From contig JBFWVI010000006.1 in assembly GCA_050246815.1 (NCBI GenBank), forward strand, positions 1 through 25,968: DNA of 25,968 bases, written 5' to 3'. The stretch's first letter is position 1. Each line of letters starts with the position of its first letter. Made by a program: the position numbers and the translations under genes. Origin of the DNA: Bdellovibrionales bacterium. Lineage in GTDB: Bacteria; Bdellovibrionota; Bdellovibrionia; Bdellovibrionales; UBA1609. This document shows positions 4,580 to 22,702 of the stretch, in pieces. The notes beneath the pieces are model-generated. The model was given only the letters and a program-made list of their open reading frames with translations. It was not told the DNA's origin and did no database searches.

Positions 4580-5746
4580 TTAACGACGTTGTTTGAGTCG
4601 CCCTCCAAAACTGCCGCGCTTCGAACCACTGCCGCCCTTACCACCCTTGGCACTGCTCCCGCCGCCGAAAATACCGAAGCCTGGGTCAAAGCCCAATTCC
4701 AATGAGAATTGCACCAGGTAGCGACGATCTTCGCGCTGCCCCGGATAAGCTCCCAATTCTTCACCGTAAGTGGCGGCGTCCACGCGAATGATACCAAGAT
4801 TCAGTCCTACCCCTGCCGTGTAATAGCCTTGGTGAAAACCCGCGCGAAGATCCAACATGGGTAACCCGACTTCCAGCCCAAAATTAATCTTCTTGCCCAG
4901 CTGGACGTCACTTCGATTCAAATAACGAAAATCAAAAGCCGGATTCACTGTCACCAAGCCCGCATCCAAATTCAGCGCCAAACCCAAACTCATTTCGTCT
5001 TGGTCTGACGGCGGTGCGGCCAATGTTAAACTGTCGGCGCGGAATGAAGTCACTCCCACATCACGCCAGACAAACGATAACACAGGTGACACCGGTCCCG
5101 GAATCAACAAATTCATGCCCAAATCCATGCTGTAGCCGCGGCCCTTGGTTTCCACATTGGCCATAATGGCATTAGGATCCAGACTACCGACGAAACTAGG
5201 GCCAAAGGGCTGTCGTGAACCCGTGCGTTGAACATATTTAAGAGTGGTTCCGATGTGCAGTACGGGCAAAATCGGAACTGCTGCACCAAGGGCGTAACCG
5301 TAGTCATTGACCACCGCCACATCCAAATTCGGATAAACCGGGTTATTCACATCAAGGCTGGCATCCAAACTGTCGTAGACCGCAAAACCAAGGTACGGCA
5401 ACGTCAACGCCGATTTGGCGCCGGCACCCACCCAGACATGGTCCCCATATAAAGTGCGTACGGTGTTTTCGAAACTGGTAGTGCCTTGGATGTCATTGAC
5501 GGTCTGAAGCACCTCTTGGCCATTGGCGCCTACTTTGACATCGGCAATCAGCCAGTTCAAACCGCTTACGCGAGCCAGGCCGGCCGGATTATAGAACAAG
5601 GCGTCTGCGTTTTCGACCACACCAAAGTAGGCATTGCCCATACCCAATGCGCGCACAGACGTGTTTTTGTCATAAAGATTCCCAGCGGCCGCGGATGCGA
5701 CGTAAAATAGACTTAAAATGAAAAACGCCCTTATGGACAGGCGCAA
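4580..5746 (-). CDS. Outer-membrane beta-barrel, FadL/PorV/TraF-like family (paralog 1), with Gly/Lys/Arg-rich C-terminal tail
   Basis: Signal peptide (..FFILSLFYVASAAA), hatch-like SVRALGMGNAY...ALFYNPAGL, alternating beta-strand pattern, and GFHQGYYTAG...DAATYGEELG...EDRRY shared with paralogs 2 and 3. Start uncertain (TTG 5746 or GTG 5767). Confidence 0.8.
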   Translation of the reverse strand: MRLSIRAFFILSLFYVASAAAGNLYDKNTSVRALGMGNAYFGVVENADALFYNPAGLARVSGLNWLIADVKVGANGQEVLQTVNDIQGTTSFENTVRTLYGDHVWVGAGAKSALTLPYLGFAVYDSLDASLDVNNPVYPNLDVAVVNDYGYALGAAVPILPVLHIGTTLKYVQRTGSRQPFGPSFVGSLDPNAIMANVETKGRGYSMDLGMNLLIPGPVSPVLSFVWRDVGVTSFRADSLTLAAPPSDQDEMSLGLALNLDAGLVTVNPAFDFRYLNRSDVQLGKKINFGLEVGLPMLDLRAGFHQGYYTAGVGLNLGIIRVDAATYGEELGAYPGQREDRRYLVQFSLELGFDPGFGIFGGGSSAKGGKGGSGSKRGSFGGRLKQRR

Positions 5747-6549
5747 GCCACAGCGTCGCCGGTACACGTTCCTAGCCCCACATCCTGACTTTCATTAATC
5801 AGCGTTCGAATGCCTCTTTGTTCGTTAGCGTCAATATCAGCAATGTCCGTTTGCGGAGGATCCGCGCAGAAGTTAAGCAAAGGTGGCAGCGCCGCACAGG
5901 CTGCGGTAAAGTCACCCGTTGCGCCAGCGCCAATGGTGCTTGAACCTATGTTTTCCAAAGCATCCATAGCGATAATCAAACCAGTCGCGAACTCTTGGGA
6001 GGCCACCGCAGGAAAATCACCCACATCACAAGGATCAAAACCAGCATCGACACTGCCATCCGGTGTACCTGAGTCACCGTAACGACTGACCAGGGCTCCC
6101 ATTTTGGCAAAACTGATAAAGGCCATCAAAAGATTCTCATCGGCAGTGCGGTCGACTCCCAGGTCACTGATTGACTTGATGATGGTCTCGGCTTGAATGC
6201 AGCTCGCCTGGCGCGAAGCGTCCCCGCCTTGAAAGGTCGACATCAACCATGGCACGACCCGAGTCGCCATGCTGCTTAAGGCATCCACCAGATCCAAAAA
6301 ATCCAAACTGGTGCATAACCCCAAATAGGCTGACGCATGCACGACTTTGACATCCCGTTTGGCCAAATAGGTGGCACTCATGGCGTTGAATTTTGCAATG
6401 GCACCGGCGTAGTTGCCCGCGTTCACCAATTGTTTAGCGTCAAAAAACAAAGCCTCGTTGCTATTGACGTCCGAGAACTCCTGCAAGATGTTCACCGAAC
6501 AGCTGGTCAAAATAAATGTTGCCAAAAGGCCAAGTAAAAACTGTTTCAT
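5731..6549 (-). CDS. Cys-rich helical lipoprotein, unknown function
   Basis: 272 aa. Lipobox ILTS-C at residue 17, GGAG RBS upstream, TPR-like helix pair near the N-terminus (FDAKQLVNAGNYAGAIAKF), 8 further Cys, ends ACACP. Confidence 0.8.
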   Translation of the reverse strand: MKQFLLGLLATFILTSCSVNILQEFSDVNSNEALFFDAKQLVNAGNYAGAIAKFNAMSATYLAKRDVKVVHASAYLGLCTSLDFLDLVDALSSMATRVVPWLMSTFQGGDASRQASCIQAETIIKSISDLGVDRTADENLLMAFISFAKMGALVSRYGDSGTPDGSVDAGFDPCDVGDFPAVASQEFATGLIIAMDALENIGSSTIGAGATGDFTAACAALPPLLNFCADPPQTDIADIDANEQRGIRTLINESQDVGLGTCTGDAVACACP

Positions 6550-6567
6550 GACAAATCTCCATATTCG

Positions 6568-7692
6568 TCAAAAACGAAAAGCAAATTTAAAAACGTAACG
6601 CCGATCCTCTTGTGTGATCGTTGCCGTCCCGACCTCTTCTCCGTAAGTGGCCGCCTGCAACTGATAGTTTTGCATGGCGAATTCCAAACCCGCCGTCCAA
6701 TAACGTTGGTTCATCCCCGCGCGCAGAAAAAATGCATCGGCCACGTTCATCTCGATGCCGGCATGCACGCGACGCATTTGATCGTCTTCATCGCCGGTGG
6801 TCAGCACGTCGCGATACTCGCCGGTGAAAGTGACACGAGTCCTTTTACTGGCAATCGGAAACAGTGCAAAGGCCACATCCACCGTCTGTGGCGTGTGATT
6901 GGGAATGGTGATGGCCGAAGTGAACATGCCCTCTTTTAAATTGTAGGAAGTGCCACCCACATCGCGCCAAACCGCCGCGATGGTTGGCAGCCACGCGATC
7001 GGAGCCGCCAAAATCAAGCCCACGTCGCCAGCTACACCAAAGCCTTCTTGAGCCAAATTATCCACCGTTAATCCCGTGGAGTTGGCGGGAATATCGATGC
7101 GGTCGATCTGTACGCGGTTGATGGCACGTGCTACGGCACCCAATTTAATGATCCCGTCGAACAGACGAAAGTTGAAGCCAAAGACTGCAGCGTAATCATT
7201 ATTGTAATGCAATTCGTAGTTAGTTCCAGCGGCATCAACGCGGCCGTCGGCGGTGTAGTTGCCATAAACACCAAAACCAAAGTTCGGCACCACGATCGAA
7301 GGGAAAAGCTGTGCCTTCAAATGCAATCTTTTATCGCGATTTGCAACCTGGTTCAGTTTGTTGAGCATTGGCTGAGGCTTGAACATATTCAAAAGATCCG
7401 TGCCCGCAAGAGTTGCGGCGTTGGCGCTGCCCTCAAGTTCTGGATCCGCTACAGTGACAAAATAATCTCGCAGCTTGCCGAGGCCTGCGGGATTAAGAAG
7501 CAGCGCCGTCTCATCGTTGACCACGGCCACGCCGGCGCCGCCCATGCCCAACTGCCGAACACCATTGTAAAACTCGTAGCGTTCCGCCGCATGTGCCAAG
7601 GGGCTGACTGAAAGTAGCACTCCAAAAAAGAGGCCACTTAAGATCACTCTCTTCAAGGACACTGGACTTGTGCGAAAGTTATGCGATTTCAT
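6568..7692 (-). CDS. Outer-membrane beta-barrel, FadL/PorV/TraF-like family (paralog 2)
   Basis: Signal peptide ending PLAHA, GVRQLGMGGAG...ALLLNPAGL, GMNQRYWTAG...ATYGEEVG...EDRRY and terminal beta-signal YVFKFAFRF. Start uncertain (7692 chosen; the ORF track extends to 7743). Confidence 0.82.
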   Translation of the reverse strand: MKSHNFRTSPVSLKRVILSGLFFGVLLSVSPLAHAAERYEFYNGVRQLGMGGAGVAVVNDETALLLNPAGLGKLRDYFVTVADPELEGSANAATLAGTDLLNMFKPQPMLNKLNQVANRDKRLHLKAQLFPSIVVPNFGFGVYGNYTADGRVDAAGTNYELHYNNDYAAVFGFNFRLFDGIIKLGAVARAINRVQIDRIDIPANSTGLTVDNLAQEGFGVAGDVGLILAAPIAWLPTIAAVWRDVGGTSYNLKEGMFTSAITIPNHTPQTVDVAFALFPIASKRTRVTFTGEYRDVLTTGDEDDQMRRVHAGIEMNVADAFFLRAGMNQRYWTAGLEFAMQNYQLQAATYGEEVGTATITQEDRRYVFKFAFRF

Positions 7693-7810
7693 CACCTTTT
7701 TTTCGGTCTCATTTTGATGCGCCTTGAGCCACTGGACCCTCATCTTGACTTAAGGCCTGAAAAATCTGGACTGCTGGCGCGTCTTGGTGCAGTTGGAGCA
7801 GGCCAAACGG

Positions 7811-7854: not shown

Positions 7855-8613
7855 ATGAGTCTATTGTGGAAAAAGCTGTTGAGTGTGGGGATTGTGGTTT
7901 TGGCGGCCGGCACCTTGAGTGGCTGCGAAGAGGAAGAGTCAAATGACCTGGCCAAAGCACAAGCTTGTTTGGACAAAATAAGCTCGACCAATTACAGCGA
8001 CGCCGAAGCCTGCCTGTCGCATGTGGCGAAGTATGATTCTCAACAGGCCAATATCTTAAAGTGCTCGATCAAAATGGTGGCCGGAGGCTTGACCACAGAC
8101 AAGGTCAGCGAAGCTTACAAAAAGCTATCCGCGGCGACCGGAACCAACGAGGCCGCCTTTATTTCGGTTCTGGCCATGGCCGACAACAAGGCCGAAGAAG
8201 CCCTTCCCTATTGTGTAAAAACAGGTTTAAAAGGACTGATCTACCTGGCCAATTTGGCCGTCATGGGAACCGCCCTGGCCAACACTTTGCCAGCCGGCGG
8301 TTATGACCCCAATGATCCTTCGACGCTTCCCACACAACAAGAGATCGACGACATGATCAACAACTGCCAACCGGGCAGCACACCCACGCCGGGCGGCACG
8401 GCCTGCGGCAACACCGAGTACACCGCCATTGGCAACGCGGCTGTCACTTTGGGCGCCAGCTACTGCGCAGGCAGCAATGCCACAAGCGAGGTTTGCACCA
8501 AAATGAACACCGCCATCACCAATGGCGGCAGCGACGCTGCCCTGATCGCCAAAGAACTGATGTGTTTGTTGGACAATAAAACTTACGACTCCATCGGCGA
8601 TGCCTGTATCTAA
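7855..8613 (+). CDS. Cys-rich helical lipoprotein, unknown function
   Basis: 252 aa. Lipobox TLSG-C, GAGGG RBS, 10 further Cys, ends GDACI. Its stop overlaps the stop of the convergent TPR-like gene. Confidence 0.82.
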   Translation: MSLLWKKLLSVGIVVLAAGTLSGCEEEESNDLAKAQACLDKISSTNYSDAEACLSHVAKYDSQQANILKCSIKMVAGGLTTDKVSEAYKKLSAATGTNEAAFISVLAMADNKAEEALPYCVKTGLKGLIYLANLAVMGTALANTLPAGGYDPNDPSTLPTQQEIDDMINNCQPGSTPTPGGTACGNTEYTAIGNAAVTLGASYCAGSNATSEVCTKMNTAITNGGSDAALIAKELMCLLDNKTYDSIGDACI

Positions 8614-9773
8614 TTTTGAACAGTACTGTCCTTAGAATTAATTTCTTTTGTTAAGTGAAATGCGCGCTTAACAAAGGCGGGCTCTTTGATTTGCTGCAGG
8701 TGCACACGCGCCCTTTCAAACTCACCGACATTTGCTAATCCAAAAGCAACGGCGTATCTAGCCTCGTCAGACTCAAGCACGGGTGTCTTGCTTAAGTTTG
8801 AATCTAGACTTGCCGCCAAGGGCCATTGATCTTGGTCGACAGCTTGAGCCAGTTGGAAACGCAGATAACGAGTGTCATCGGGAATCTGCAGCGCATACCA
8901 CTGCGCCATCCTAGGCTTGCCACGCTGGCGCAATAGTTCCGCCGCATGAAAGTTAAACTCACGTCTTTGTCGCGCCAATGTCGCGAATAAATCGGTCACG
9001 GCTTGCAGCCAACCGCGTTGGTAATATCCAGCAATAAGGGCCTGAAGAACCAGCGGATCTGCCGGCCAACGTAATCGTGCTAGTTCCAACAGCTCCAAGT
9101 GCAGCTGAGGAACCGAACTAAAAATCTCAGCCAAGCCGATTGCCTGAGAGGCCGTTGCACCCGGCCGTGCAATTAAGTCCTGAGCTCGATGGAAGGCTTC
9201 ATTCTGGATATGCTGCGAAAACAAAAGATTCACTTGTTGATACTGCCATGCCGACACAGAAAAGTTTTTCTCTCCCCACTTCAAGACCCCCCAGGCTGAA
9301 GCCACCTGGCTGATCTTGACATAACACCGATAGGCTCGCCACAGATCAGATTCAGTTGCAGATTTAAAGCCCTCAACTTCGTCGACAAATTCGGCGCAGG
9401 CATTAAAGTTACCCATTTGTTCTTCGATGCGGGCCTGCATCCAGCGCAACTCCGCGACCTCAACGATTTGCACGTTGTTTGCTTGCATTCGCGCACTTAT
9501 AGCCAAGACCATCAACGCTTGCGCCTCATGCCATTTTTTTGATTGATAGGCGATCTCGGCGCGAATCCAATATTCAAGGCCAAGGCTTTTTGATTTCTCT
9601 TGCTTAGAAAGAAGTCGTACCTGCTCGTAAGCAACTTGCAATTTTTCTTCTTTCAAAAGCTGCTTTACTAATATTGCCCCTTCAAGTTCGTCATACCTTG
9701 AATTCAGTAAAATATCCGTGGCCTCGGCCACAAAAGGAAGCGTCAGCAAAATAAGCAGGAGACTCTTGAGCAT
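8610..9773 (-). CDS. Secreted TPR-like helical protein (positional TtpD equivalent)
   Basis: 387 aa. Signal peptide MLKSLLLILLTLPFVAEA, TPR-like helices (YWIRAEIAYQSKKWHEA; YAVAFGLANVGEFERARVHL). Last gene of the TonB operon, directly after tonB. Confidence 0.7.
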   Translation of the reverse strand: MLKSLLLILLTLPFVAEATDILLNSRYDELEGAILVKQLLKEEKLQVAYEQVRLLSKQEKSKSLGLEYWIRAEIAYQSKKWHEAQALMVLAISARMQANNVQIVEVAELRWMQARIEEQMGNFNACAEFVDEVEGFKSATESDLWRAYRCYVKISQVASAWGVLKWGEKNFSVSAWQYQQVNLLFSQHIQNEAFHRAQDLIARPGATASQAIGLAEIFSSVPQLHLELLELARLRWPADPLVLQALIAGYYQRGWLQAVTDLFATLARQRREFNFHAAELLRQRGKPRMAQWYALQIPDDTRYLRFQLAQAVDQDQWPLAASLDSNLSKTPVLESDEARYAVAFGLANVGEFERARVHLQQIKEPAFVKRAFHLTKEINSKDSTVQN

Positions 9774-9786
9774 TTTTTACGTTACC

Positions 9787-10398
9787 TCAATTTAGTTCAA
9801 AGCGGATTTTTTGCATCGACCATTCCGCTACCGCCTGCCCACCCCTTAGCGCCGGCGCAAAACGCCAATTGCGCACGGCACTCAATGCAGCCTGGTCAAA
9901 GGCTCCCGGCGGCGTACTTTCCACCACGCTGATTGCCGTCATCTCTCCACTGGGTTGTATCAAAACCTTCACTATGACCGAGCCACTGATCCCGCGGCGA
10001 CGGGCGTCTTCGGGATAAGACAAAGGGCCGCGCGTCAATACCCGCACGGCCTGATCCACTCTGGCCTCTTGAACCAGCTGCCCGGCCGCGGCACCAAGCC
10101 CGCCGCCGCCGATACCACCACCATTGCCATGACCGAATCCTAAACCAAATCCAGACGGCGTGGCCGCCTGATCGGCGCTCATGGACTGCGGCGCTAAAGC
10201 CCGCATTGGATCTTGTGTTGGTTGTGCCTGAGTTGGAATTTCAGCTTGCGTTTCGGGCGGCAAAGCAACCGCAAGGATAGGCTTATTCTTCAGCGGCGCG
10301 AACTCAGGATCGATGAGGCTTGGGTCTGCAGCCATCACTGCAATCGCAACCACGAAGACCAACACGGCACAAATAAAAAATAATTTTAAAATCCGCAA
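9787..10398 (-). CDS. tonB: Energy transducer TonB (short, TonB2-like)
   Basis: C-terminal TonB domain YPEDARRRGISGSVIVKVLIQPSG...FDQAALSAVRNWRFAPA...IRFEL, N-terminal hydrophobic anchor and Gly-rich linker. TTG 10398 preferred as start because AGGGG precedes it; the ORF track gives 10449. Confidence 0.88.
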   Translation of the reverse strand: MRILKLFFICAVLVFVVAIAVMAADPSLIDPEFAPLKNKPILAVALPPETQAEIPTQAQPTQDPMRALAPQSMSADQAATPSGFGLGFGHGNGGGIGGGGLGAAAGQLVQEARVDQAVRVLTRGPLSYPEDARRRGISGSVIVKVLIQPSGEMTAISVVESTPPGAFDQAALSAVRNWRFAPALRGGQAVAEWSMQKIRFELN

Positions 10399-10418
10399 AG
10401 CAACACCCCTTTGTCTTT

Positions 10419-11273
10419 TTACAGGCGTGCAAGCCGGAAAAACAACCATGCCACCACAGCAAACAGCATAACCAGAACGATGATCGGCAATAGACCAGCA
10501 GCTTGGTCAACCCAGGTGGATGCCTTCGTCAATTGAACCGAGGAGCGCAAACTATCAAAGACATAGAGCGGGGTCAGTCCGGCCTCTTGAGTAGCGGCAG
10601 AAAGCCAACCACTAAGCCAAGAACTACGTTTTTGCTCAACCACACGCAGGTGTCCTGAACTTGGCCCCAAAACTTCGACCCCGTCGCCGCCGGGCACCAA
10701 CGCCGCAGCCGCGCCCACACGAATGATGGGTCCCGCCTGCAGCTGTTCAGCTTTATCTAAATAAGCACCTGGCTGCAGCCGAACCGAGCTGATGTCTTCC
10801 AGAAGCGCTAAAGCCAACTGTGCTCTTGCTTGGACTTGCGCCAAGCTTTTAGTCTCATCCGTCAAGTCATCAGGTTGAAGAGTCTCAGCGTAAGCTTGTT
10901 GTTCGCGGACTTCCAATAAAAGCTGCGCCATTTTTTTTCCAAGATTATCTAGATCCGTTGACTGACTTAAAATTTCACGGCGCTGCTTTTCTTCGTTTTG
11001 CACCTTCAATGTCAATTTTTCATTCTCAGCCTGCAAAGCAACTAATTCCTTTTCAGCTAAACGAAGACGGCTTTCAGTTTGATTTCTCTCAACACGAGCG
11101 CGCTGGTCAATTTTTTTGCGCTGCTGCGAAAGCTGATCGCGAACGTCAAATAAAAATTTTTGCTCGCGCCGATAGGCCTGCTCAAGCTCCTCTTGAGCCG
11201 GTGTAGCAAATGCCTGTCCAATGTTTATCAATGCCGCGATGATTAGAATTTTTTTTGCTGTACACATCTTCAT
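10419..11273 (-). CDS. TtpC-like periplasmic coiled-coil protein with a single C-terminal TM helix (no ExbB/MotA channel helices)
   Basis: 284 aa. Signal peptide (..GQAFA), long coiled coil, GAYLDKAEQLQAGPIIRVGAAAAL and TPLYVFD...TWVDQAAG resembling the N-terminal region of TtpC-type proteins, then one TM helix and stop. Follows the DUF3450-like gene with an ATGA overlap. Confidence 0.65.
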   Translation of the reverse strand: MKMCTAKKILIIAALINIGQAFATPAQEELEQAYRREQKFLFDVRDQLSQQRKKIDQRARVERNQTESRLRLAEKELVALQAENEKLTLKVQNEEKQRREILSQSTDLDNLGKKMAQLLLEVREQQAYAETLQPDDLTDETKSLAQVQARAQLALALLEDISSVRLQPGAYLDKAEQLQAGPIIRVGAAAALVPGGDGVEVLGPSSGHLRVVEQKRSSWLSGWLSAATQEAGLTPLYVFDSLRSSVQLTKASTWVDQAAGLLPIIVLVMLFAVVAWLFFRLARL

Positions 11274-12025
11274 TGGATCTCCATTGCGGCCGGTGACGCT
11301 AACCCAGGAACTTCAAACCAGCCATGACGCATTTGTTTTTTAAAACGCATTAGAATACGTTCGATCGAGTTCTTTATTTCATGATTATCGGTCATGTTTA
11401 AAGTCCATGCGCCAGACCGAAATTGGGAAAACCCGACGCGCTTTTGCGGATCGGCGAAGACCATCGACACCATGCCAAACCGTGCAAGTTCAACGGTTCT
11501 GATTTCACCATTCACTTTTAAAGGCATCACGACAAATTCATTCCGCCTTGCCAGTTGAATTTCTTTCTCGGTAATCGCCCAAAGCTCCTGGGCCAGACGT
11601 GATGGACTGGATGTTCCTTGCAGCAAACCTTGTCGCCAATTTTCCAGTCGCAATAATCGATCCTCAAGTTGAAATGGCAAGCTTGTTTTGACATACCGAG
11701 AGAGGCGTTCATGCCAAGCCTTAAACGCATCCACCAAAGTCGCGCGCACGCCTGGCAGGGTTTCTTCACGCAAAACCTGCAGCCGAGCCTTCAATTGCAA
11801 GTTTTTTAGCTTTTCTTTCTGAATTTGCGCGTCAACCTCAACCCATCGGCCTCGAGGTGCTTCGATTTCGGCCTTCGCTTGAGCCTGCGCACTTTCAATC
11901 TCGCGGTTGAGCTGTTCGATTTCTCCACGCAAAAAAACAATCTCAGCACCAATTTTATTTAATTGAATCGGTTCTGCCTGAGCGGCAATCAGCATGAGTC
12001 CCATCAAATATATGATCATCGTCAC
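11270..12025 (-). CDS. DUF3450 family / TtpB-like periplasmic coiled-coil protein
   Basis: 251 aa. Signal peptide, coiled coil, then LSRYVKTSLPFQLEDRLLRL and VELARFGMVSMVF...W, recognisable as the DUF3450 core pattern. GTGA overlap with the exbD stop. Confidence 0.75.
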   Translation of the reverse strand: MTMIIYLMGLMLIAAQAEPIQLNKIGAEIVFLRGEIEQLNREIESAQAQAKAEIEAPRGRWVEVDAQIQKEKLKNLQLKARLQVLREETLPGVRATLVDAFKAWHERLSRYVKTSLPFQLEDRLLRLENWRQGLLQGTSSPSRLAQELWAITEKEIQLARRNEFVVMPLKVNGEIRTVELARFGMVSMVFADPQKRVGFSQFRSGAWTLNMTDNHEIKNSIERILMRFKKQMRHGWFEVPGLASPAAMEIQ

Positions 12026-12435
12026 TCCTCCAAGGGTCGATCAGTGGTCACAGCCAGATGCTTGACACCAGACGATTTGACCCAATCCAGTACCCGAATA
12101 ATTTGTCCATAATCAGCGGATTGGTCTGCCGCGACAATTGCCTGCACCTCGGGATTTTTGCCAACTTCAATTGCGGCCTGGGCCCGAAGGTTGACTTCAT
12201 CCACTTCGGCATTGTTCAGGTGCAGGCGACCATCGGCTGTGACCGCTATTTGCAATGAGGAGGGTTCGCCGTCTTCTGCAGAGCCCGCAGCCGGTAAGTC
12301 GACGACTAAGTTGGGCTTCATCATCGCGGGGGATGTGACCATAAAGATAATCAAAACCACGAGAATAATATCGACTAAGGGAACCACGTTGATGTCGGCG
12401 ATAACTTCGTCACTGTCACTACTTTTCGCGGCCAT
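12022..12435 (-). CDS. exbD: Biopolymer transport protein ExbD/TolR
   Basis: ADINVVPLVDIILVVLIIFMVT with the conserved TM Asp; VDLP; AADQSADYGQIIRVLDWVKSSGV. ATG 12435 preceded by GGGAG. Confidence 0.92.
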   Translation of the reverse strand: MAAKSSDSDEVIADINVVPLVDIILVVLIIFMVTSPAMMKPNLVVDLPAAGSAEDGEPSSLQIAVTADGRLHLNNAEVDEVNLRAQAAIEVGKNPEVQAIVAADQSADYGQIIRVLDWVKSSGVKHLAVTTDRPLEE

Positions 12436-13063
12436 TTTGTACTCCCTGCTGCTTGCTCCAAGCCAAAACAAGATCACGGCAAGAGTCCAGGCTACCCATC
12501 ACCAGTTTAACTTGCCGTTGAAAAAAGTTAAAAGCCAACACGGCGGGAATTGCCACCAGCAGACCCGCAGCAGTGGCAATCAGGGCCGCTGAAATTCCAG
12601 CCATCACGGACTGTTGATTGGCATTGACGGTTTGTGACATATCATTGAAAGCTTTCATGATCCCCAAAACCGTACCAAATAAACCGATATAGGGTGCGTT
12701 TGATCCAACCGTCGCCAAAAACCCCAATGAGCGTTCAAGCTGACTACGCTCCAATTGCGCCACAGTAGAAAAAATTTCTGACAGGCCCTCATGATGACCA
12801 CTACGCGCCTGTTCGAGCGCAAGTCCTACAGCCCGCCCTTCGATCGACCCCGTGTTGGCCGCGATATCTTCGACGACACTTAAATTGCGCTCTTTCACAG
12901 CTTGCGTAATCTGTTGCCGGTGAAAAAGACTTTGCTTGATCACCGGCTTCAGAGTTGCCCAACGCTCAAAAATCAAGCCTATACTGACCACGGCCAAAAG
13001 CACCAATAGCCAAAGTACTCCTTGGTCGGCTAAACCTGCGACGGCAAAAATTCGTTCCTGCAT
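12419..13063 (-). CDS. exbB: MotA/TolQ/ExbB proton channel protein
   Basis: FLATVGSNAPYIGLFGTVLGIMKAF and AGISAALIATAAGLLVAIPAVLAFNFF; three TM helices. ATG 13063 preceded by AAGGAGG. Confidence 0.92.
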   Translation of the reverse strand: MQERIFAVAGLADQGVLWLLVLLAVVSIGLIFERWATLKPVIKQSLFHRQQITQAVKERNLSVVEDIAANTGSIEGRAVGLALEQARSGHHEGLSEIFSTVAQLERSQLERSLGFLATVGSNAPYIGLFGTVLGIMKAFNDMSQTVNANQQSVMAGISAALIATAAGLLVAIPAVLAFNFFQRQVKLVMGSLDSCRDLVLAWSKQQGVQNGREK

Positions 13064-13064
13064 A

Positions 13065-13802
13065 CTAATCCTCCTTGGCCCCTTCGCGAAGCAAGAGTTG
13101 TTCAATTCTTTTTAAATTCAGCTGCCGGGCAAGTGCCAGCGGCGACAAATCCGTTTGAGTCTTAAAATTCACATCGACTGCATTTTCCAGATCATCTTGA
13201 ATCGATGGTTTATGTTGCAAAAGTGCCCGCACCACCAATTCGCGGTTATTTTGTATGGCGGCTGTCAACGGTGTGTGGCCTGAGCCCGTATCATGAAATT
13301 GTGTTGCCGTGTTTTGTGCCAGTAGGCGTTTGACATCCTGAGTATGTCCACTCATCACTGAAAGCATCAAAGCCACCCGGTCCTGAGCTTCGATTTCGGC
13401 ATTGAAAATCTTAAGGATTACAGGCTGATTTTCTGCGTACTCCTCGGCAAGGCGACCGCTGTCATCCACACTCTTGGCTTCAATGCCTTGCTGAAGAAGC
13501 CAACGCACAACCTTAACCGCACCGACCCGACTGGCCTCGTGCAATGCAGGCCGTCCTTCAATTAATACTTGTCTAAAATCAAATTTTTCGGTCGCCAAAG
13601 ACTCTAGGGATTTCAAATCGCGCGTTTGAATCGCAATGAGCGCGGTCTCAACAGGTTTTTCAAGACGCGGGTCAGAATTATCTGTGGGACTATGCAGTCC
13701 GCCAAAACGCTCGCTTTTATGAACACCGCATGCACTCAGGGTTAGCGTATAAATAAATCCCACCAACGAAAGATTAATAATTGGCGGTAAGCGAAACAAC
13801 AT
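13065..13802 (-). CDS. Ankyrin-repeat lipoprotein
   Basis: Lipobox TLSA-C; ankyrin motifs GRPALHEASRVGAVKVVRWLLQQG, GHTPLTAAIQNNRELVVRALLQH and DVNFKTQTDLSPLALARQLNLKRIEQLLLREGA. ATG 13802 preceded by AGGGGGAG. Confidence 0.85.
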   Translation of the reverse strand: MLFRLPPIINLSLVGFIYTLTLSACGVHKSERFGGLHSPTDNSDPRLEKPVETALIAIQTRDLKSLESLATEKFDFRQVLIEGRPALHEASRVGAVKVVRWLLQQGIEAKSVDDSGRLAEEYAENQPVILKIFNAEIEAQDRVALMLSVMSGHTQDVKRLLAQNTATQFHDTGSGHTPLTAAIQNNRELVVRALLQHKPSIQDDLENAVDVNFKTQTDLSPLALARQLNLKRIEQLLLREGAKED

Positions 13803-16350
13803 AGGCGCTCCCCCTCTTTTGCTCACGCACGACTTCCCCGCCTTGCGTGGCTAAAATTTTTGGATCAAAAATGTTCTTCGCGCGAAAGCCAATGCTAAGT
13901 GCCGCATCCACTTTTTTATTCGCCACTAGATCCACCTGATGCACGGTCTGTTCAAAAACATCCGGTCGCCCGGCCGTGCCCACTTCAGTAATTCGTGGCC
14001 CCAGAGCATTGTATAACACTGTGAACGAGGTCCCGAATGCGGGACGATCATATTGCAGCTGAAAGTTGGCTATCCATGGTGACTGCCCCTGTAATGGACG
14101 TTCACCAGATGTCTGTAGCCCTGCTGCCTCTGGCCCAAGGCTGACCTGCGATTCAATTAATGCAAAATTGGCCATCACAGTGAACCTGCGCAAATTTCGG
14201 CTAAAGCGGCGCAATGCACTGCGCGCTTCAAACTCTAAACCTAGGTTCGTGGCGGATTCGGCATTGGCATAAGTCTTTCGTAAATTGGGGCTAGGTTCAA
14301 AGACCTCTTCGATCGGCGCCTTGAATTGCTTAAAGAAGGCACCGACTGAAATGCTTTCGTCGGTGGACGGGTAGTATTCCCAACGATGATCCAGACTGCG
14401 GATAATTGTCCCTTGAAGTTGTGAGTTGCCGACTGTTTCATAGCCAGACTCTTCGTCAATGAACGGAGCCGTTGAAAGCTCGCGAAATTCAGGACGCGTT
14501 ACAGTTTCACTGTACGCAAGACGCGCACGCCATTGCTCATTCAAACGCCAAGTCAATAAATGCGACGGCAGCCAATCGTCTGTTGTTAATCCTGCGCGTG
14601 AGGTGGGCTGACCTTGATTGAAGTAATAAAAAGTTTTAACCTCTTGTCTGCTGTTTTCATGACGTAGGCCGGTCTGCCAAACCCAATGCTCAGAGATCTT
14701 CCAGTCCATCTCGGCAAATTGGGCGCTTTGCGATTGTTCAGCCGTGTAGGAGTCCGCCGATTCACTCAAGTTCGTCAAAACAAAGCCGTCCGAACGAATT
14801 TCGTCCGGAGCTAGAATTTCCTCAATTGGTCGGGTCAAATCCGGAGTCGCCCCGCTGGGAAAGCGGCTACGGAAGTGCAGTCGCCAAGTGTCCGATCGGC
14901 GTTCTCGCTGAGTCATTTGGGCCCCAGCACTCAACTTCAGTTCGCCTGAACCGAGCCCGTGTCGGTGGGTTAATGAGAACCCTCCTTCTACCGCCTGATC
15001 TTTGAGTTCTGACCAATTGCGCTGATTGCCGTTCGGGCTCAAGTCAAACTCCAAACCCTGGCCGCGATCTTGATAAGTGTATTCTCGTCGATCGGGTTGA
15101 TCACGCTGGGCCTGCGCCCACTGCAAACGCCAGTCTGCAGCCCACGGCGGTTTTTCACCCTTTTCTGAACGGTGCTCAGCACCAAGTTGGGCCACCAGCA
15201 GCTGTCTTTCAACCCAGTCCAACGTGGTTCTTTTTAAATTCCGAATCGAATCATTTTCTCGCTCGATATTTTTCTGCGCCAACTCTTCACTGCTGTGGCG
15301 AAGCATGAGGCCTGTTAAATGCAGGCTGTGGCGTGAGGCCACTTCAACACCCAAATCCAAACTGGCCGCAGCCTTGACCTCATTTTCACTGACTTCGGCT
15401 TGGGCCGCCTCATCACGAGCCAATCGCCCACCACTACCGACGTTAAAGCGCTGACTTTTTTTGCGCGTAGTTTCCCCCGACCGCGAATAACTTAACGAAG
15501 AGGCCCAACCCAGCTGCATCCCATTCACTCGGTGCCCGGCGCCTCCAGCCAATGACAAACCCGGCATTTGGATTTGATCTTCACCCGCGCGTACGCTGTA
15601 TGAATTTTTAAGAAGTCGCCCCATTGCGACCAGCTCTTCACTCGAAAAACCATTGTTAAAAAACGGCGGGTTGTTTTCTGCTAACTGACGGCCAGAGCCT
15701 AGTGCTCTGCGAATTGGTGCCGGCATGGCTCGGGTCCCGTCATCGACGCCCATCCAGTCTGTGCTGCCACCCTTCGCGTCCAGACTTTTACTATTTCCGG
15801 TGAGCGCTTGAGTGACACCTGCACGAAAAAATCTTTTTTGCGGCAACCTTTTGGTGCGCAATTGGATCAGCCCTCCACCGAACTCACCCGGCAATGGAGC
15901 ACTAAAACTTTTTTGCACCACAACACTTTCTAAAATCGCCGTGGGAAACAAATCCAAAGGGACGACTCGTCTGGCAGGCTCCGGACTTGGTAAGCCCGAA
16001 CCATTTAGCGTAACAGCCGAATAGCGCTCACCCATCCCGCGAACATAGATGTATTTACCGTTCATCAGGGTCAGCCCCGTCACGCGCCTCAGACTCGAAC
16101 CCGCATCAGAGTCTCCGCTTCGGGCCATCTGCTCGGATGCCAAAACCTCAGCTACACTGGAACTTTGTCGACGTAACTCAACTAAATCCGCAATCGAACC
16201 CTGGATCTTGGGTGCCAAAACGATGTGCTCTTCAACCTCTTGCTGAATCGAGACTGACTGTGCCAGTGCACTTGATGCTAAAAATAAAATTCCAACTGAC
16301 AGAATCAAAAAAGCAGAAAAGGGGGCGCTTATGACGCCCCCATTTAACAT
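13774..16350 (-). CDS. TonB-dependent outer-membrane receptor
   Basis: Signal peptide (..LASSALA), TonB-box-like EEHIVLA, plug domain (LRRVTGLT...YIYVRGMGERYS...LNG..LPSPEP.RRVVPLDLFP), barrel motifs RLAYSETVTRPEFRELS and AKNIFD, terminal aromatic residue (LTANY). Start uncertain. Confidence 0.92.
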   Translation of the reverse strand: MLNGGVISAPFSAFLILSVGILFLASSALAQSVSIQQEVEEHIVLAPKIQGSIADLVELRRQSSSVAEVLASEQMARSGDSDAGSSLRRVTGLTLMNGKYIYVRGMGERYSAVTLNGSGLPSPEPARRVVPLDLFPTAILESVVVQKSFSAPLPGEFGGGLIQLRTKRLPQKRFFRAGVTQALTGNSKSLDAKGGSTDWMGVDDGTRAMPAPIRRALGSGRQLAENNPPFFNNGFSSEELVAMGRLLKNSYSVRAGEDQIQMPGLSLAGGAGHRVNGMQLGWASSLSYSRSGETTRKKSQRFNVGSGGRLARDEAAQAEVSENEVKAAASLDLGVEVASRHSLHLTGLMLRHSSEELAQKNIERENDSIRNLKRTTLDWVERQLLVAQLGAEHRSEKGEKPPWAADWRLQWAQAQRDQPDRREYTYQDRGQGLEFDLSPNGNQRNWSELKDQAVEGGFSLTHRHGLGSGELKLSAGAQMTQRERRSDTWRLHFRSRFPSGATPDLTRPIEEILAPDEIRSDGFVLTNLSESADSYTAEQSQSAQFAEMDWKISEHWVWQTGLRHENSRQEVKTFYYFNQGQPTSRAGLTTDDWLPSHLLTWRLNEQWRARLAYSETVTRPEFRELSTAPFIDEESGYETVGNSQLQGTIIRSLDHRWEYYPSTDESISVGAFFKQFKAPIEEVFEPSPNLRKTYANAESATNLGLEFEARSALRRFSRNLRRFTVMANFALIESQVSLGPEAAGLQTSGERPLQGQSPWIANFQLQYDRPAFGTSFTVLYNALGPRITEVGTAGRPDVFEQTVHQVDLVANKKVDAALSIGFRAKNIFDPKILATQGGEVVREQKRGSAYVVSLTANY
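16307..16341 (-). terminator. Intrinsic terminator-like hairpin inside the operon
   Basis: Minus strand reads GGGGGCG-tcataag-CGCCCCC followed by TTTTCTGCTTTTTT, beginning 47 nt after the stop of the 16389..17669 gene. Confidence 0.7.
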
Positions 16351-16388
16351 CTTCAATTTTACAAGACACCCGGTATCCACTTTCACGA

Positions 16389-17669
16389 CTACTGAGTGAC
16401 CGAAGTTGTCCAGCCCAAAGTCCAATCTTCTTGTGAACCACTGATTGCGCCGATGTAATCGGCCGGTTCGAAGAATAAATCTTCAAGCATCAAGGCCTTG
16501 CCCAACAAGGGACTTCCACTGCGTGGAATGTAGCCATCCAGCTGCAAATCCTGACTGACCATATTGCCCACTTGCGAATTGAACCAATCGGCAATTGACC
16601 ACACATCGTTTGCTTCTTCCATAAAGGGTTTACTGCAAGCCACCGCGGTGTTGAACATTTTTAGGCCACCGTGGTTAAAGGTCTCTGCATCATCAATATT
16701 GATGCAGCCTTTTGGAAAACCAACCATCGCAACGTTTGCGAAAATACCGGCTGTCCCCCGACGCAGCAACATTCCATATCCTGATTTGGCGCCACCGATC
16801 ATTGTCACGTTGGCGATCACCGGGTTCGAACGTGGCTGCGCATCCATCGGCGATTTCAAATTATCCGCCTCAAAGCCGCTGTCTCCAATGTCATCAGCAT
16901 GGCGAATCACGATGAACTGGGCACGACCAACCCATCCCATGTCCCAGTCAACAGAATCATCGTCGTTGGCCGTTAGAACCAAATGCTTGGCATCCACGGT
17001 CCCACCGAAAAACTCAACCCCGTCATCTGCATTCATGTGAACCTGAATATAATCAACAACCGTGCCGGCACCGACTCCGTTAAATGTGATACCATTTAAT
17101 TCATTGTCAGGAGCAATGGGGTAGCCGCCAAATTCAACGCGGACGTATCGCAGCTCACCGCTATTGTCCTGAGCGTTATTGCCGCCAAATCGCACTTGCT
17201 CTTCTTTGATTCCTTCACTGATCGCCTCACAGACTGGGGTGCCAGCTTTACAGGCATTGATTGGCGCGTTGCCATTGATCACCAAACCGCCCCATTCGCC
17301 ACGCTTGCGCTCAGTTTGCTTGGCCGAAGTGAAAACCACCGGGCGCTCTGCCGTGCCAAGAGCGAAGACTTTCGAACCGCGCATGATCACCAAAAAAGTT
17401 CCTGCATTGGCTAGAATTCTGGTGCCCGCCTGAATTCGAAGAGTCGATGAGTTTTGATTGTCGCCACCAATGTATGTGCCCTGCTCTAAGAGATAGTCGT
17501 TATCCGCAGTGAGAAACAACTCCGTGTTTAAATATTTTTTTTGAGAGAAGGCACACAGGTCCTTGCCGTCAAGCTGCGCACGCTTTGTTGTGCCACTTGG
17601 ACACGCCGCATTTGCGCTCATGGCGCCTGCGGCCAAAAGGGCCAATCCCATCAACTTAAATCTGATCAT
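16389..17669 (-). CDS. Secreted parallel beta-helix protein, acidic motifs, ElpS-like TBDR-associated family
   Basis: 426 aa. Signal peptide; motifs GTAERPVVFTS, GEWGGLVINGNAPIN, DNSGELRYVRVEFGG, DNELNGITFNGVGAGT, DDGVEFFGG, DDDSVDWDMGW, GFEADN and YIGA...DWTLGWT. ATG preceded by AGGAG. Confidence 0.8.
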   Translation of the reverse strand: MIRFKLMGLALLAAGAMSANAACPSGTTKRAQLDGKDLCAFSQKKYLNTELFLTADNDYLLEQGTYIGGDNQNSSTLRIQAGTRILANAGTFLVIMRGSKVFALGTAERPVVFTSAKQTERKRGEWGGLVINGNAPINACKAGTPVCEAISEGIKEEQVRFGGNNAQDNSGELRYVRVEFGGYPIAPDNELNGITFNGVGAGTVVDYIQVHMNADDGVEFFGGTVDAKHLVLTANDDDSVDWDMGWVGRAQFIVIRHADDIGDSGFEADNLKSPMDAQPRSNPVIANVTMIGGAKSGYGMLLRRGTAGIFANVAMVGFPKGCINIDDAETFNHGGLKMFNTAVACSKPFMEEANDVWSIADWFNSQVGNMVSQDLQLDGYIPRSGSPLLGKALMLEDLFFEPADYIGAISGSQEDWTLGWTTSVTQ

Positions 17670-17733
17670 TGTCGTCTCCTGTCGTGAGTTGTGTTTCTGA
17701 ACTCAGCGATATCGCGACTTCGATCAAATGCGT

Positions 17734-17772
17734 AATCAGGACTACGTCAGGCTTATGTCTGGATTTTGTTAG
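17734..17772 (-). promoter_or_regulatory. Four direct repeats with 11-bp period; Pho-box-like / OmpR-PhoB family operator
   Basis: Minus strand reads CTAACA-aaatc-CAGACA-taagc-CTGACG-tagtc-CTGATT, ending 64 nt upstream of the first ATG of the operon. Confidence 0.55.
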
Positions 17773-17775
17773 AGG

Positions 17776-18936
17776 TTAAAAATCTAAACTCATTTCAAGC
17801 ATATAGCGCCGGCTTTCTTTGGGTACGTCGGTGGTGCCGACCTCTTCGCCGTAAGACGCGATGTCCAATTGAAAGATCGCCATGCGCGCGCCGAAGCCGG
17901 CAGTCCAATAGCCCTGGTTCAAACCAATGGCCCAATGCCCCTTCCACCAGTTGAACATCTTCCAATAAAGTTCGGCACCGGCGTGCATTCCCTTTTTCCA
18001 GGTCCAGTTTTCATGCAGCACATCGCGAATATCGAAAGCAAAGTGGGGATCGAACTTCCAAAAGTGCGGCAACTGCCACTTGGTACCGAAGTCAAAACGG
18101 CGCTGAAGCTTGGGTGGCTCGCCAGAATTTTTATCCAAAAAGTGGAAATTGGTGGTGAAGCCATAATCGGCCAGGTTACGGCCCACAATGGCGAACGTGG
18201 GCTTAATAAAGGCGTTCTTGCCAACCCGCGGAGTCCATAAAGCGCCAACATCCAAGTCGACGGTGAAACCTTCATTGGCATCGTCGGTGTCGAACACTTT
18301 GTCGTCATTGGCCAACTCACCGGCTGAAATCGCTTCGCTGACATTCACGCGATGAATCCCTTTAACCGTGACGCCCAAAGAGACCAAATTGCTTTTACCA
18401 AACCATTTGACGTTGCGGGCATAACCGTAAGCCAAAGTGCTGTCCAAGTAGCCGTTCACGTTTAACATTGGGCCGATCTGTTGGTGAACCGCAATGTCGA
18501 TCGAAAGATCCGCCGGAATAAAGGCGATACCCCAATTGGGCCTGACCCACACCGCGCCCAAAGTGGGAATACGGAAATAATAGTGATTTCCATAATTGTT
18601 CTGGATCAGGTCCGTGAGCGCGTCGATTTGTTCGGATTCTGTGGGTTTTTTTGTGGCGGCCTCGATGTCGTCGATCAAAGGCAAATATTGATCGTCCATA
18701 CCGCCACGAAGGAACATGCGCACTTGGCCATCTGTGCGACGGGCAAGGGCTGCGGGGTTGTAAAATAGCGCGCTATGGTCGTCGACCACAGCTGAAAACG
18801 CATTGCCCATGCCCAGCGCGCGAGTGCTGGTGTACTCTTGATGAATGGTGAAGTCCAAGGCTTTCGAAGCCTGGGCTTGCCCGGCTTGAACGATCAATGC
18901 CAACAATCCGATTCCGTACACCAAACGAAGACTCAT
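17776..18936 (-). CDS. Outer-membrane beta-barrel, FadL/PorV/TraF-like family (paralog 3)
   Basis: Signal peptide (..QAGQAQA), STRALGMGNAF...ALFYNPAAL, GLNQGYWTAG...DIASYGEEVG...ESRRY and terminal YMLEMSLDF. ATG 18936 preceded by AGGGG. Confidence 0.85.
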   Translation of the reverse strand: MSLRLVYGIGLLALIVQAGQAQASKALDFTIHQEYTSTRALGMGNAFSAVVDDHSALFYNPAALARRTDGQVRMFLRGGMDDQYLPLIDDIEAATKKPTESEQIDALTDLIQNNYGNHYYFRIPTLGAVWVRPNWGIAFIPADLSIDIAVHQQIGPMLNVNGYLDSTLAYGYARNVKWFGKSNLVSLGVTVKGIHRVNVSEAISAGELANDDKVFDTDDANEGFTVDLDVGALWTPRVGKNAFIKPTFAIVGRNLADYGFTTNFHFLDKNSGEPPKLQRRFDFGTKWQLPHFWKFDPHFAFDIRDVLHENWTWKKGMHAGAELYWKMFNWWKGHWAIGLNQGYWTAGFGARMAIFQLDIASYGEEVGTTDVPKESRRYMLEMSLDF

Positions 18937-19004
18937 TTTGTTTGCCCCTTGCATACGATCAACAATAAAATTGTATATGCGCAAAGGCGAACGGCGGTAT
19001 ATTT

Positions 19005-19655
19005 ATGTCGATGCAAGTCTGGGTTCGAATTCAATTATTGACGTTAGTCTTAACACTGCTTGCCACAAATGCGCTGGCCACAACACCTGACAAAACCGAG
19101 GCGCCCCTGTCAAAACCTGGCCATGTGACGCCACCTCCACCCGCTCCAGGCGATGGACGGGAGCTCGATGAATACAATTTGTTGTCCACGCCACCTGCCT
19201 TACCACTGCCGCCTGAAGCGCGTGAAACCCATTACTATCCCTTTCGTCAGGCCCTGTCCCCTCGTCTAGGAGCGGTGATCACCAACGATGAAGATCATCA
19301 ATTCGAGTATTTGTTGGGCATCAGTTACTTGTGGCCACGCTATCGTCAACCCCAAGCGGAATTGGGCGTCGACTTGCTGTCAGGCCTGGGTGGCCACTTG
19401 AATTTTGGTGTTCGACATATTTTTTTCGAACGAAACTACTTTCGACCTTATTTCTTGTGGGGTCTTACTCACGAGGTCGTGCCCGAAGATCGCTTGGCCA
19501 CCATCACCAACATTGATAACTACTATCTGCGCATTGCCGTGGGCATGGAGGACACTTTAGAATTGCCCAAAAGTGTTCGTTTGGAACTTGAAGGGCAGCT
19601 GGGCATTGATAAATATCTTTTATTGTTATGCCTGGGGTACACTTGGGGTTTCTAA
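19005..19655 (+). CDS. Small outer-membrane beta-barrel-like protein with Pro-rich N-terminal linker
   Basis: 216 aa. Signal peptide (..ATNALA), TPPPPAP linker, amphipathic strands (RPYFLWGLTH, VRLELEGQLG) and terminal LGYTWGF. Confidence 0.7.
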   Translation: MSMQVWVRIQLLTLVLTLLATNALATTPDKTEAPLSKPGHVTPPPPAPGDGRELDEYNLLSTPPALPLPPEARETHYYPFRQALSPRLGAVITNDEDHQFEYLLGISYLWPRYRQPQAELGVDLLSGLGGHLNFGVRHIFFERNYFRPYFLWGLTHEVVPEDRLATITNIDNYYLRIAVGMEDTLELPKSVRLELEGQLGIDKYLLLLCLGYTWGF

Positions 19656-20248
19656 AGTCCCTCGAGCTTATTGACCAACTCACCCACTTGCATTTTCAGA
19701 TCAGCTAAGGAGCCATGGTTTCGCACCACAAAATCGGCCTGTTTTGTTTTTTCCGCCAATGGCATTTGACTGTTCAAACGCTGTAAGACCTGTTTGCGGC
19801 CCCAGCCTTCACGGGCCATGGTGCGGCTGATCTGCAACTCCTCGGGCGCATCGACCACCACGATCTTGGCAAAACGTTTTTGCATGTTCTTTTCGAACAA
19901 CAGCGGCACATCGTAAAAAGCCACTTTTTCGCCACGGTTTTCAGCCGCCAGACGCCGCTCCTCGGTCAACCGGCCCACCACGGGATGAACGATGGCCTCC
20001 AATTTTTTCAAGGCCTCGGCGTCTTTAAAAACCAAATCCGCTAGTTTTTTACGGTCCAGTTCGCCATTTGGTTTTTGAAAATGTGAGCCGAATTGGTGCA
20101 AGACCTTGGTCAAGCCTTCTGAATTTGGACCAACGGCCAGGCGAGCCATTTCATCGGCATCGACGACGGTGTATCCAAGTTCTCGTAGTAATTTCGCGAC
20201 GGTGGATTTGCCAGAACCCAAACCGCCCGTCAAACCAATCCACAGCAT
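19652..20248 (-). CDS. coaE: Dephospho-CoA kinase
   Basis: IGLTGGLGSGKSTVA, VVDADEMAR, LDRKKLADLVF, LEAIVHP, DVPLLFE, ADFVVRN. Confidence 0.96.
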   Translation of the reverse strand: MLWIGLTGGLGSGKSTVAKLLRELGYTVVDADEMARLAVGPNSEGLTKVLHQFGSHFQKPNGELDRKKLADLVFKDAEALKKLEAIVHPVVGRLTEERRLAAENRGEKVAFYDVPLLFEKNMQKRFAKIVVVDAPEELQISRTMAREGWGRKQVLQRLNSQMPLAEKTKQADFVVRNHGSLADLKMQVGELVNKLEGL

Positions 20249-20282
20249 ACAAGGCTGACCTTAGCCCAGGGCGCTTTTGACA

Positions 20283-20310
20283 TCAAGCATGCGCCGCAAA
20301 ATGCCGAGAT
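20283..20310 (+). promoter_or_regulatory. Possible sigma28 (FliA) promoter upstream of the kinase gene
   Basis: TCAAGCAT-N12-GCCGAGAT versus consensus TAAAGTTT-N11-GCCGATAA. Imperfect match. Confidence 0.3.
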
Positions 20311-20315
20311 AAATT

Positions 20316-22691: not shown

Positions 22692-22702
22692 ATTCCCCAG
22701 TT

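Follow-up and report, generated by a model that had tools for sequence, protein, structure and literature searches.

The TonB2 and TonB3 systems of Vibrio are built from six components encoded in the order ttpB-ttpC-exbB2-exbD2-tonB2-ttpD (PMC6957404, PMC5524678, PMC10734418; the papers cited here were available in part, and what is said of them holds for those parts). TtpB, TtpC and TtpD are essential in the TonB2 systems (PMC6957404), and the Vibrio TonB2 papers, so far as covered, give no mechanism for any of the three. Because TtpC both forms part of the channel and extends far into the periplasm, its two roles are inseparable by deletion. Which of them such a system needs is the question raised by a nine-gene block on the minus strand of a 25,968-nucleotide stretch of DNA (hereafter, the window) from a Bdellovibrionales bacterium (GCA_050246815.1, contig JBFWVI010000006.1). 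The TtpC-like protein encoded here, denoted TtpC', ends before the channel domain, and an ExbB-ExbD pair of different ancestry is encoded in front of ttpB and ttpC'.

We regard it as probable that the block encodes a self-contained TonB importer whose TtpC has no channel domain and whose proton motor is likely an ordinary, duplicated ExbB-ExbD pair; phosphate starvation likely induces it. The type of beta-helix and receptor pair found here and the phosphate module as such are already known; what is likely new is the loss of the TtpC channel domain together with the replacement of ExbB2/ExbD2 by an unrelated ExbB and ExbD, a predicted motor swap. That evolution kept the periplasmic half of TtpC with one helix and dropped the channel speaks for placing the essential role in the periplasm. 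As a natural dissection with one receptor and one motor, the system lends itself to testing the role of the Ttp accessory proteins, and the operon offers a clean route to the cargo of a very widespread ElpS-type receptor pair, likely part of a phosphorus-scavenging pathway.

Gene content and comparison with the Vibrio systems

A sequence-only reading of the window had proposed nine tightly coupled genes, encoding in order a beta-helix protein, a TonB-dependent receptor, an ankyrin lipoprotein, ExbB, ExbD, a DUF3450-like protein, a TtpC-like protein, TonB and a TPR-like protein. Inspection of the open reading frames (ORFs) places all nine at 17669-8610 in this order, and Pfam matches above cut-off cover the receptor (plug and barrel), the ankyrin protein, ExbB (MotA_ExbB), ExbD, TtpB (DUF3450) and TonB (TonB_C). 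With the likely starts, and with the receptor start read from the sequence, the junctions are about +38 (beta-helix/receptor), -29 (receptor/ankyrin), +1 (ankyrin/exbB) and -17 (exbB/exbD). Between exbD and ttpB there are 2 nucleotides, or a GTGA overlap if GTG 12025 is the start; ttpB and ttpC' share an ATGA (-4), the ttpC'/tonB junction is -31 with one choice of start and about +20 with the other, and tonB is followed by the TPR gene at +13. The proposed tight coupling thus holds at every junction, but the ATGA/GTGA overlaps said to mark it are found at one or two junctions only.

The block shares with the Vibrio TonB2/TonB3 systems a DUF3450 protein (TtpB) encoded directly before a TtpC homologue, and a short TonB; counting the last gene, which follows tonB and is predicted to encode a TtpD-like TPR protein, all six gene types would be represented. 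Unlike those systems, it has a TtpC that is homologous in the periplasmic part and lacks the MotA/TolQ/ExbB domain (which the full TtpC of relatives has), an ExbB and ExbD from another clade placed before ttpB (exbB-exbD-ttpB-ttpC'-tonB-TPR), and receptor, beta-helix and ankyrin genes of its own, with predicted control by phosphate and not by iron. On this comparison it would act as a TonB system assisted by Ttp proteins and fitted with a receptor pair of ElpS type, yet it departs from the Vibrio systems in three features that define them. The sequence-only reading knew of no characterised example of this architecture. The gene order was indeed found in no paper, and no description of a stand-alone short TtpC was found either, in a literature of which most subscription papers and primary TtpC papers lay beyond reach; the beta-helix and receptor pair, on the other hand, is partly characterised (ElpS, Fjoh_0545/0546, BT4055/4056). 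DUF3450 appendages have been noted on ExbB-like subunits (PMC12505986).

TtpC without a channel domain

TtpC' (10419..11273, minus strand, 284 aa) consists of a signal peptide, a helix of ~100 residues, a beta domain and one C-terminal membrane helix, and its gene follows that of TtpB (11270..12025, minus strand), a predicted periplasmic coiled-coil protein that matches DUF3450 at 55.9 bits against a cut-off of 32.6. TtpC' itself matches DUF3450 below threshold (E 0.098), and it lacks an ExbB-like channel domain, with no MotA_ExbB match in Pfam. Its profile aligns with the N-terminal part of full-length TtpC from Bdellovibrionota and Myxococcota over 238 columns (hhalign probability 99.9), and that part in turn aligns with TtpC of Alteromonadales (93.4). 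The homology to TtpC and DUF3450 that had been suspected for the 10419 and 11270 proteins is thus borne out. The direct profile match of TtpC' to the Vibrio-like TtpC of Alteromonadales is weak (probability 41-62), which weighs against our account, and the link to the Vibrio-like protein therefore runs through the Bdellovibrionota and Myxococcota sequences. A distant paralogy also links TtpB with TtpC' (hhalign 94.6), and full-length TtpC also weakly matches DUF3450.

The shortening noted at the outset is exact and conserved: TtpC' stops after the first membrane helix, and in each of the 39 distinct short sequences the end lies 21 residues past the invariant Pro263. A truncation by assembly error was rejected on this ground. 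The membrane segment (helix 254-283), with its invariant Pro and Phe, is the best-conserved part of the protein (0.55 vs 0.44 for the long helix), and in a search with the short-TtpC profile about 65 clusters at 50% identity outscore the best full-length TtpC. Profiles were needed for such searches, as a single-sequence, word-based search with TtpC' returned only itself. The structural model (pLDDT 82.6) comprises the ~100-residue helix, the beta domain, which is small, and the anchor, with a pTM of 0.43 that makes the orientation of the domains unsure; structure searches with it returned generic coiled coils only (Z < 8), barely covering the beta domain, and all Atlas matches were below 0.9.

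In the mechanism that we propose, TtpB and TtpC' would pair as long coiled-coil proteins into a periplasm-spanning strut anchored by the single membrane helix of TtpC', and at the receptor this strut would hold TonB and the TPR protein or guide them. The two proteins are joined in frame in three distinct fusions with 24-39% mutual identity (L241:5229-6848; P0186, P0187, P0200). Two observations weigh on the other side: each fusion retains a remnant resembling a signal peptide and might be a one-base error at the 4-nt overlap, and broken copies occur in two genomes (a ttpC frameshift in G006, split genes in G475). The G006 frameshift, together with the low identity of orthologues to the window TtpC' (17-31%), would also be expected if TtpC' and TtpB were leftovers or a passive envelope brace, with an ordinary ExbB-ExbD-TonB doing the work and the short TtpC having no part in transport. 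We consider this improbable, given that TtpC' is intact with a fixed C-terminus over several families and two or more orders, that its membrane segment keeps the invariant Pro and Phe, and that in Vibrio none of TtpB2, TtpC2 and TtpD2 is dispensable (PMC6957404).

Returning to the strut, a bolder version of it may be put forward as an idea that we find attractive but rather doubtful. TtpB and the periplasmic half of TtpC could form a motor-independent plug-in strut, a two-chain coiled coil of ~15 nm whose lone conserved membrane helix would dock on any ExbB-ExbD ring; the lineage would have moved this strut from its native hetero-ring to a housekeeping motor, and the ankyrin lipoprotein would tether a lid that has no lipid anchor. 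If true, this would be a fourth Ton-system architecture and would explain why the short TonB needs Ttp partners.

Among 61 genomes of the lineage, 15 (G005, G012, G019, G020, G021, G029 and others) have a second, much closer DUF3450 match (E ~1e-74 to 1e-89), which apparently belongs to a separate Ttp system unlinked to the beta-helix gene.

Origin of the predicted motor

The ExbB of the block (12419..13063, minus strand) is a duplicate of the stand-alone ExbB of the lineage, being 46% identical to the paralogue on contig C11 of the same genome. ExbD (12022..12435, minus strand), with the conserved membrane Asp (PLVD), is likewise closest in the genome to the stand-alone ExbD on C11 (E 2e-36), while a Vibrio-order ExbD2 query matches it at 1e-12 only. 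This stand-alone exbB-exbD family (G000 C11:49761-50810; L164-L190) is matched in 56 of the 61 genomes, and G000, G001, G006 and G021 each keep a second, stand-alone exbB copy. No tonB adjoins the stand-alone pair in the loci seen.

In the ExbB tree the 25 operon sequences all group together (SH-aLRT 98) within the stand-alone family, well away from both ExbB2 and the TtpC channel domain. The 24 TtpB sequences sampled from the short layout also cluster, joined by one long-branch Vibrio-order sequence (SH-aLRT 99). The ExbB trees reject the idea that the window ExbB is the detached second half of TtpC, and its identification as an ExbB2 was also discarded: a clade of operon ExbB with ExbB2, the latter sampled from Alteromonadales and Bdellovibrionota and not from Vibrio, is rejected at p-AU 0.0009, in a test whose ExbB/ExbB2 grouping had been named after an earlier tree. 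It counts against the argument that the trees are quick searches made without bootstrap. Three ExbB loci that were duplicates, and the locus of the window itself, were dropped from them before counting, and in the TtpB and ExbB trees the window copy does not group with the copy of a congener.

ExbD keeps its membrane Asp and ExbB both of its Thr-containing motifs, features whose role is known from work in E. coli. An ordinary ExbB pentamer with ExbD would energise the short TonB (9787..10449, minus strand; ~205-220 aa, no His in the membrane helix), and TonB would pull the plug of the receptor. The last gene (8610..9773, minus strand; its stop overlaps the stop of a converging gene) encodes a TtpD-like predicted TPR protein, which has no Pfam match itself and matches the last-gene proteins of relatives at E 1e-10 to 1e-24, some of these matching TPR families.

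Distribution of the two layouts

Among the 61 genomes, 11 carry the beta-helix gene, six in Vibrio order, four in window order (the source genome included) and one on a cut contig. The six Vibrio-order genomes have a full TtpC, ~430-450 aa where complete, and Vibrio order is also seen in Alteromonadales, Myxococcota and others (24 of 65 homologous GTDB loci have a gene of the TtpC/ExbB2 family). These beta-helix/Ttp loci of Vibrio order in Bdellovibrionota, Myxococcota and Alteromonadales share with the window the beta-helix, receptor, TtpB, TonB and TPR genes and the promoter repeats, and the Bdellovibrionota copies the ankyrin gene as well; they differ in having a full-length TtpC (~415-500 aa) with ExbB2/ExbD2. 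No complete short TtpC was found among the loci examined from outside Bdellovibrionota.

The short-TtpC profile matched 58 of 384 genomes of the order, which on inspection comprise 38 of short type, 19 of Vibrio type and one fragment, counts that do not give a fair ratio since the profile favours short forms. G408 (a frameshifted Vibrio-order locus), G453 and G279 were reclassed on inspection, the fragment, G263, was left unclassed and G289 uninspected. The sequence ttpB-ttpC'-tonB was checked in 37 of the 38 short-type genomes. At the level of the phylum 36 of 401 genomes matched, with six short forms, from two families, outside the order. Twenty loci were fetched in full, and 19 of them show beta-helix, receptor, ankyrin, exbB, exbD, ttpB, ttpC' and tonB in this order, the ORF filter having missed a few genes; the twentieth is of Vibrio order with a broken ttpC. 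The placement of exbBD before the ttpB/ttpC-like pair, as originally described, is hence not unique to this genome and is common in the lineage. We consider the Vibrio-order beta-helix/Ttp layout the likely ancestral state, and on the simplest reading truncation and motor swap would have arisen once, together, in an ancestor within Bdellovibrionota and then spread as a cassette.

Receptor, beta-helix partner and cargo

The receptor (13774..16425, minus strand, likely start ATG 16350) has a plug and a barrel above the Pfam cut-offs, and these are the only plug and the only barrel detected in a genome that is 99% complete. The motor genes of the block can therefore have only one detected client, in keeping with the dedicated import machine envisaged by the sequence-only reading. 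The receptor is 28-31% identical to receptors encoded beside ElpS-like genes of Caulobacterales. Many orthologous receptors (L015, L018) exceed it in length by ~170 aa and carry N-terminal carboxypeptidase-regulatory-like domains, which are missing from the window receptor.

Directly before the receptor is encoded an ElpS-like right-handed beta-helix protein (16389..17669, minus strand, 426 aa) with a predicted signal peptide I and no lipobox. Its homologues, where named, are mostly from Bdellovibrionaceae and Bacteriovoracaceae, one being annotated in Bdellovibrio sp. ArHS, and it has no match in the Pfam set used, which did not contain PF28492, the family (Beta_helix_4) to which Atlas assigns it. 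It is 37-40% identical (E 1e-61 or better) to all five single-domain Caulobacterales proteins fetched, whose loci show an ElpS-like lipobox, then a related receptor and, in four of five, gspD. Homologues are present in 113 of 151 genomes of the order holding Oceanicaulis, which we take to be Caulobacterales in GTDB. ElpS (CC0170) of Caulobacter crescentus, with the receptor CC0171, is induced by phosphate starvation (PMC2996285). Orthology was judged by the published features, namely a lipobox LAGC or LASC near residue 20, the receptor next and gspD. The window pair resembles ElpS/CC0171 in the beta-helix gene directly before a related receptor and in a link to phosphate, here a predicted one, and differs in the missing lipobox and in a private Ton motor in place of adjacent gsp genes. 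Pairs of a receptor and a pectin-lyase-like partner, related to ElpS, are reported to be adjacent in 621 genera (PMC8115612, bioRxiv 10.1101/2023.03.17.533168). They include Fjoh_0545/Fjoh_0546 in a phoBR cluster of Flavobacterium, induced by phosphate starvation (PMC8115612), and BT4055/BT4056 of Bacteroides, for which a model places BT4056 over BT4055 as a lid (bioRxiv 10.1101/2023.03.17.533168). By their published description these two pairs are like that of the window, except that the partners Fjoh_0546 and BT4056 are lipoproteins and that no dedicated Ttp motor is reported in the parts of those papers covered.

The beta-helix protein is accordingly predicted to be a lid or substrate-binding partner of the receptor. 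In the proposed mechanism it would cap the receptor and catch a phosphorus-containing solute, at a guess organic phosphoesters or nucleic-acid fragments. Its AlphaFold2 model (pLDDT 92.9) is a right-handed beta-helix, and the alignment shows invariant Cys23 and Cys39 and many invariant acidic residues, among them E152, E190, D215, D216, E219, D237, D238, D241 and E267. Such residues, a net charge of -16 and nearest folds among polysaccharide lyases and epimerases would also suit a metal-dependent surface enzyme, or a cargo that is a metal cofactor for phosphatases, with the receptor importing the product or the metal and the machine and its phosphate control unchanged. PhoX, which requires Ca and Fe, is encoded in the genome, and secretion of ElpS goes with higher alkaline phosphatase activity (PMC2996285). 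We nevertheless hold this alternative to be unlikely. The fold matches are generic, with Z falling from 23 to 17 over unrelated beta-helices at 6-16% identity; the match to Pel9A (Z 23.2, rmsd 3.1, 284 aligned) does not stand above other beta-helices, Foldseek and VIA gave generic beta-helix matches only, and the PDB holds no sequence relative. The BT4056 lid model does have predicted receptor contacts, though few (bioRxiv 2023.03.17.533168).

It is a difficulty for the lid model that the window protein lacks the lipid anchor of ElpS, so that its surface location is not given. By eye, its N-terminus ends AxA-CP with no lipobox, here and in almost all Bdellovibrionota copies, whereas the G408 copy appears lipidated. 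The ankyrin-repeat protein (13065..13802, ORF to 13826, minus strand; 245 aa), a predicted lipoprotein with the lipobox LSAC, may tether the non-lipidated lid. It had been taken for an addition of the window layout, a view that does not hold, and the candidate of a protein specific to this layout was dropped: in relatives, loci of Vibrio order too have an ankyrin gene after the receptor (three of four candidates match Pfam ankyrin), and one occurs in an Oligoflexus locus. The lipoprotein was found almost only in Bdellovibrionota, in both layouts. The coincidence in that lineage of beta-helix proteins without a lipobox and an ankyrin lipoprotein almost confined to it might also be read as a Ton motor and barrel acting outward, in the export, display or release of the beta-helix protein with the ankyrin lipoprotein as chaperone or tether, and the Caulobacterales pair adjoins a type II secretion system and not a Ttp motor (4/5 loci). 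This is the least probable of the explanations weighed here: the plug and barrel of the receptor are ordinary, non-lipidated beta-helix proteins unaccompanied by an ankyrin protein occur in Gammaproteobacteria, and lipidated ones with the same Ttp motor in Myxococcota and Alteromonadales.

Longer homologues of the beta-helix protein, of ~900 aa with apparently two domains in tandem and of ~1350 aa with apparently three, occur in Gammaproteobacteria (L065-L120) and Alphaproteobacteria (L088, L112, L117), and in Rheinheimera tandem-domain homologues are divergent from phoBR.

Predicted phosphate control

Upstream of the block lie four direct heptamers with an exact 11-bp period (17733..17772, minus strand; CTAACAA, CAGACAT, CTGACGT, CTGATTA), predicted to be PhoB-type boxes; the repeats had been noticed from the sequence. 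A similar pair of boxes precedes pstS in the pstSCAB-phoU-regulator-kinase cluster of the genome (C7). The genome thus shows the features of a Pho regulon, boxes of 11-bp period resembling those of pstS and a PhoBR-type system. With a matrix learned unsupervised from the pstS regions of five relatives, the window promoter ranks 11 of 2883 (three boxes) or 69 of 2883 (two boxes), and with three boxes nine of ten operon promoters of relatives score at or above the 99.4th percentile. For 13 of 20 further loci the promoter score is matched by at most 7 of 200 shuffles. A refined matrix, trained on 33 regions with no sequence from the source genome and without L234, L241 and one piece of L251, ranks the operon 2, a phoB-like regulator 3, endonuclease I 6-7 and pstS/ppx 10-11 among 3060. 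Gene content points the same way, with a PhoB above cut-off beside 17 of the 65 homologous loci (17 of the 18 regulators tested pass) and a PstS-like gene in nine of the 65.

Several results temper this picture. The pstS-only matrix is weak, placing the genome's own pstS 41st with two boxes and 315th with three among 2883. The refined matrix puts PhoX at 710 and a PhoD-like gene at 1154 of 3060, and several of the sites it ranks highest lie before genes without an obvious connection to phosphate. The refined matrix derives mostly from orthologous promoters, which makes rank 2 partly circular, and one of its 33 training regions holds no promoter. The 17 PhoB neighbours come mostly from related Gammaproteobacteria, and many of the hosts are kin. 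The regulator of the pst cluster scores 195.6 bits against the PhoB cut-off of 296, and another regulator reaches 208; since its score lies below the cut-off, the former can be called PhoB by position only.

Judged from sequence comparison, the predicted control of the block by phosphate has good indirect support, and it is likely that phosphate starvation switches the block on, with a PhoB-type regulator binding the 11-bp repeats. The suggestion of an inducible, phosphorus-scavenging system thereby gains support from the repeats and the co-location with PhoB. Top-ranked copies of the motif also mark an endonuclease I family gene (G000 C75:5189-6145) and a RoxA-like cytochrome c gene (C62:3826-5292) as candidate members of the same regulon.

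Genomic setting

Here the block has been inserted between neighbours: the genes on either side, a barrel gene at 17776 and a lipoprotein gene at 7855, adjoin directly in two of three congeners and lie ~1.3 kb apart in the third, and one of the three carries the operon at another site. The flanks belong to a cluster, kept in the congeners, of three paralogous outer-membrane barrel genes (4580-5767, 6568-7743 and 17776-18984; one TraF_2 match above cut-off, weak PorV/FadL-like matches) interleaved with lipoproteins of unassigned family (5731-6549 and 7855-8613).

Scans for sigma-70 promoters and terminators were at chance level. Just 3' of the beta-helix gene, a GC-rich hairpin followed by a T run (16321..16341, minus strand; 8 pairs, 7 of them G-C) is a possible partial terminator or mRNA stabiliser, with weak support, hairpin sites numbering 16 vs 14.1 expected by chance.

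In one sub-lineage (L125, L126, L132) an Ig-domain lipoprotein of ~800 aa is encoded upstream of the beta-helix gene, beside the operon, as is a divergent endonuclease/exonuclease/phosphatase gene that hints at a phosphoester cargo. The remainder of the window (1-4573 and 19652-24481) holds ordinary neighbours: an AddAB-like helicase/nuclease pair, a dephospho-CoA kinase, a membrane Ser/Thr kinase with a PEGA domain and a probable long-chain acyl-CoA ligase.

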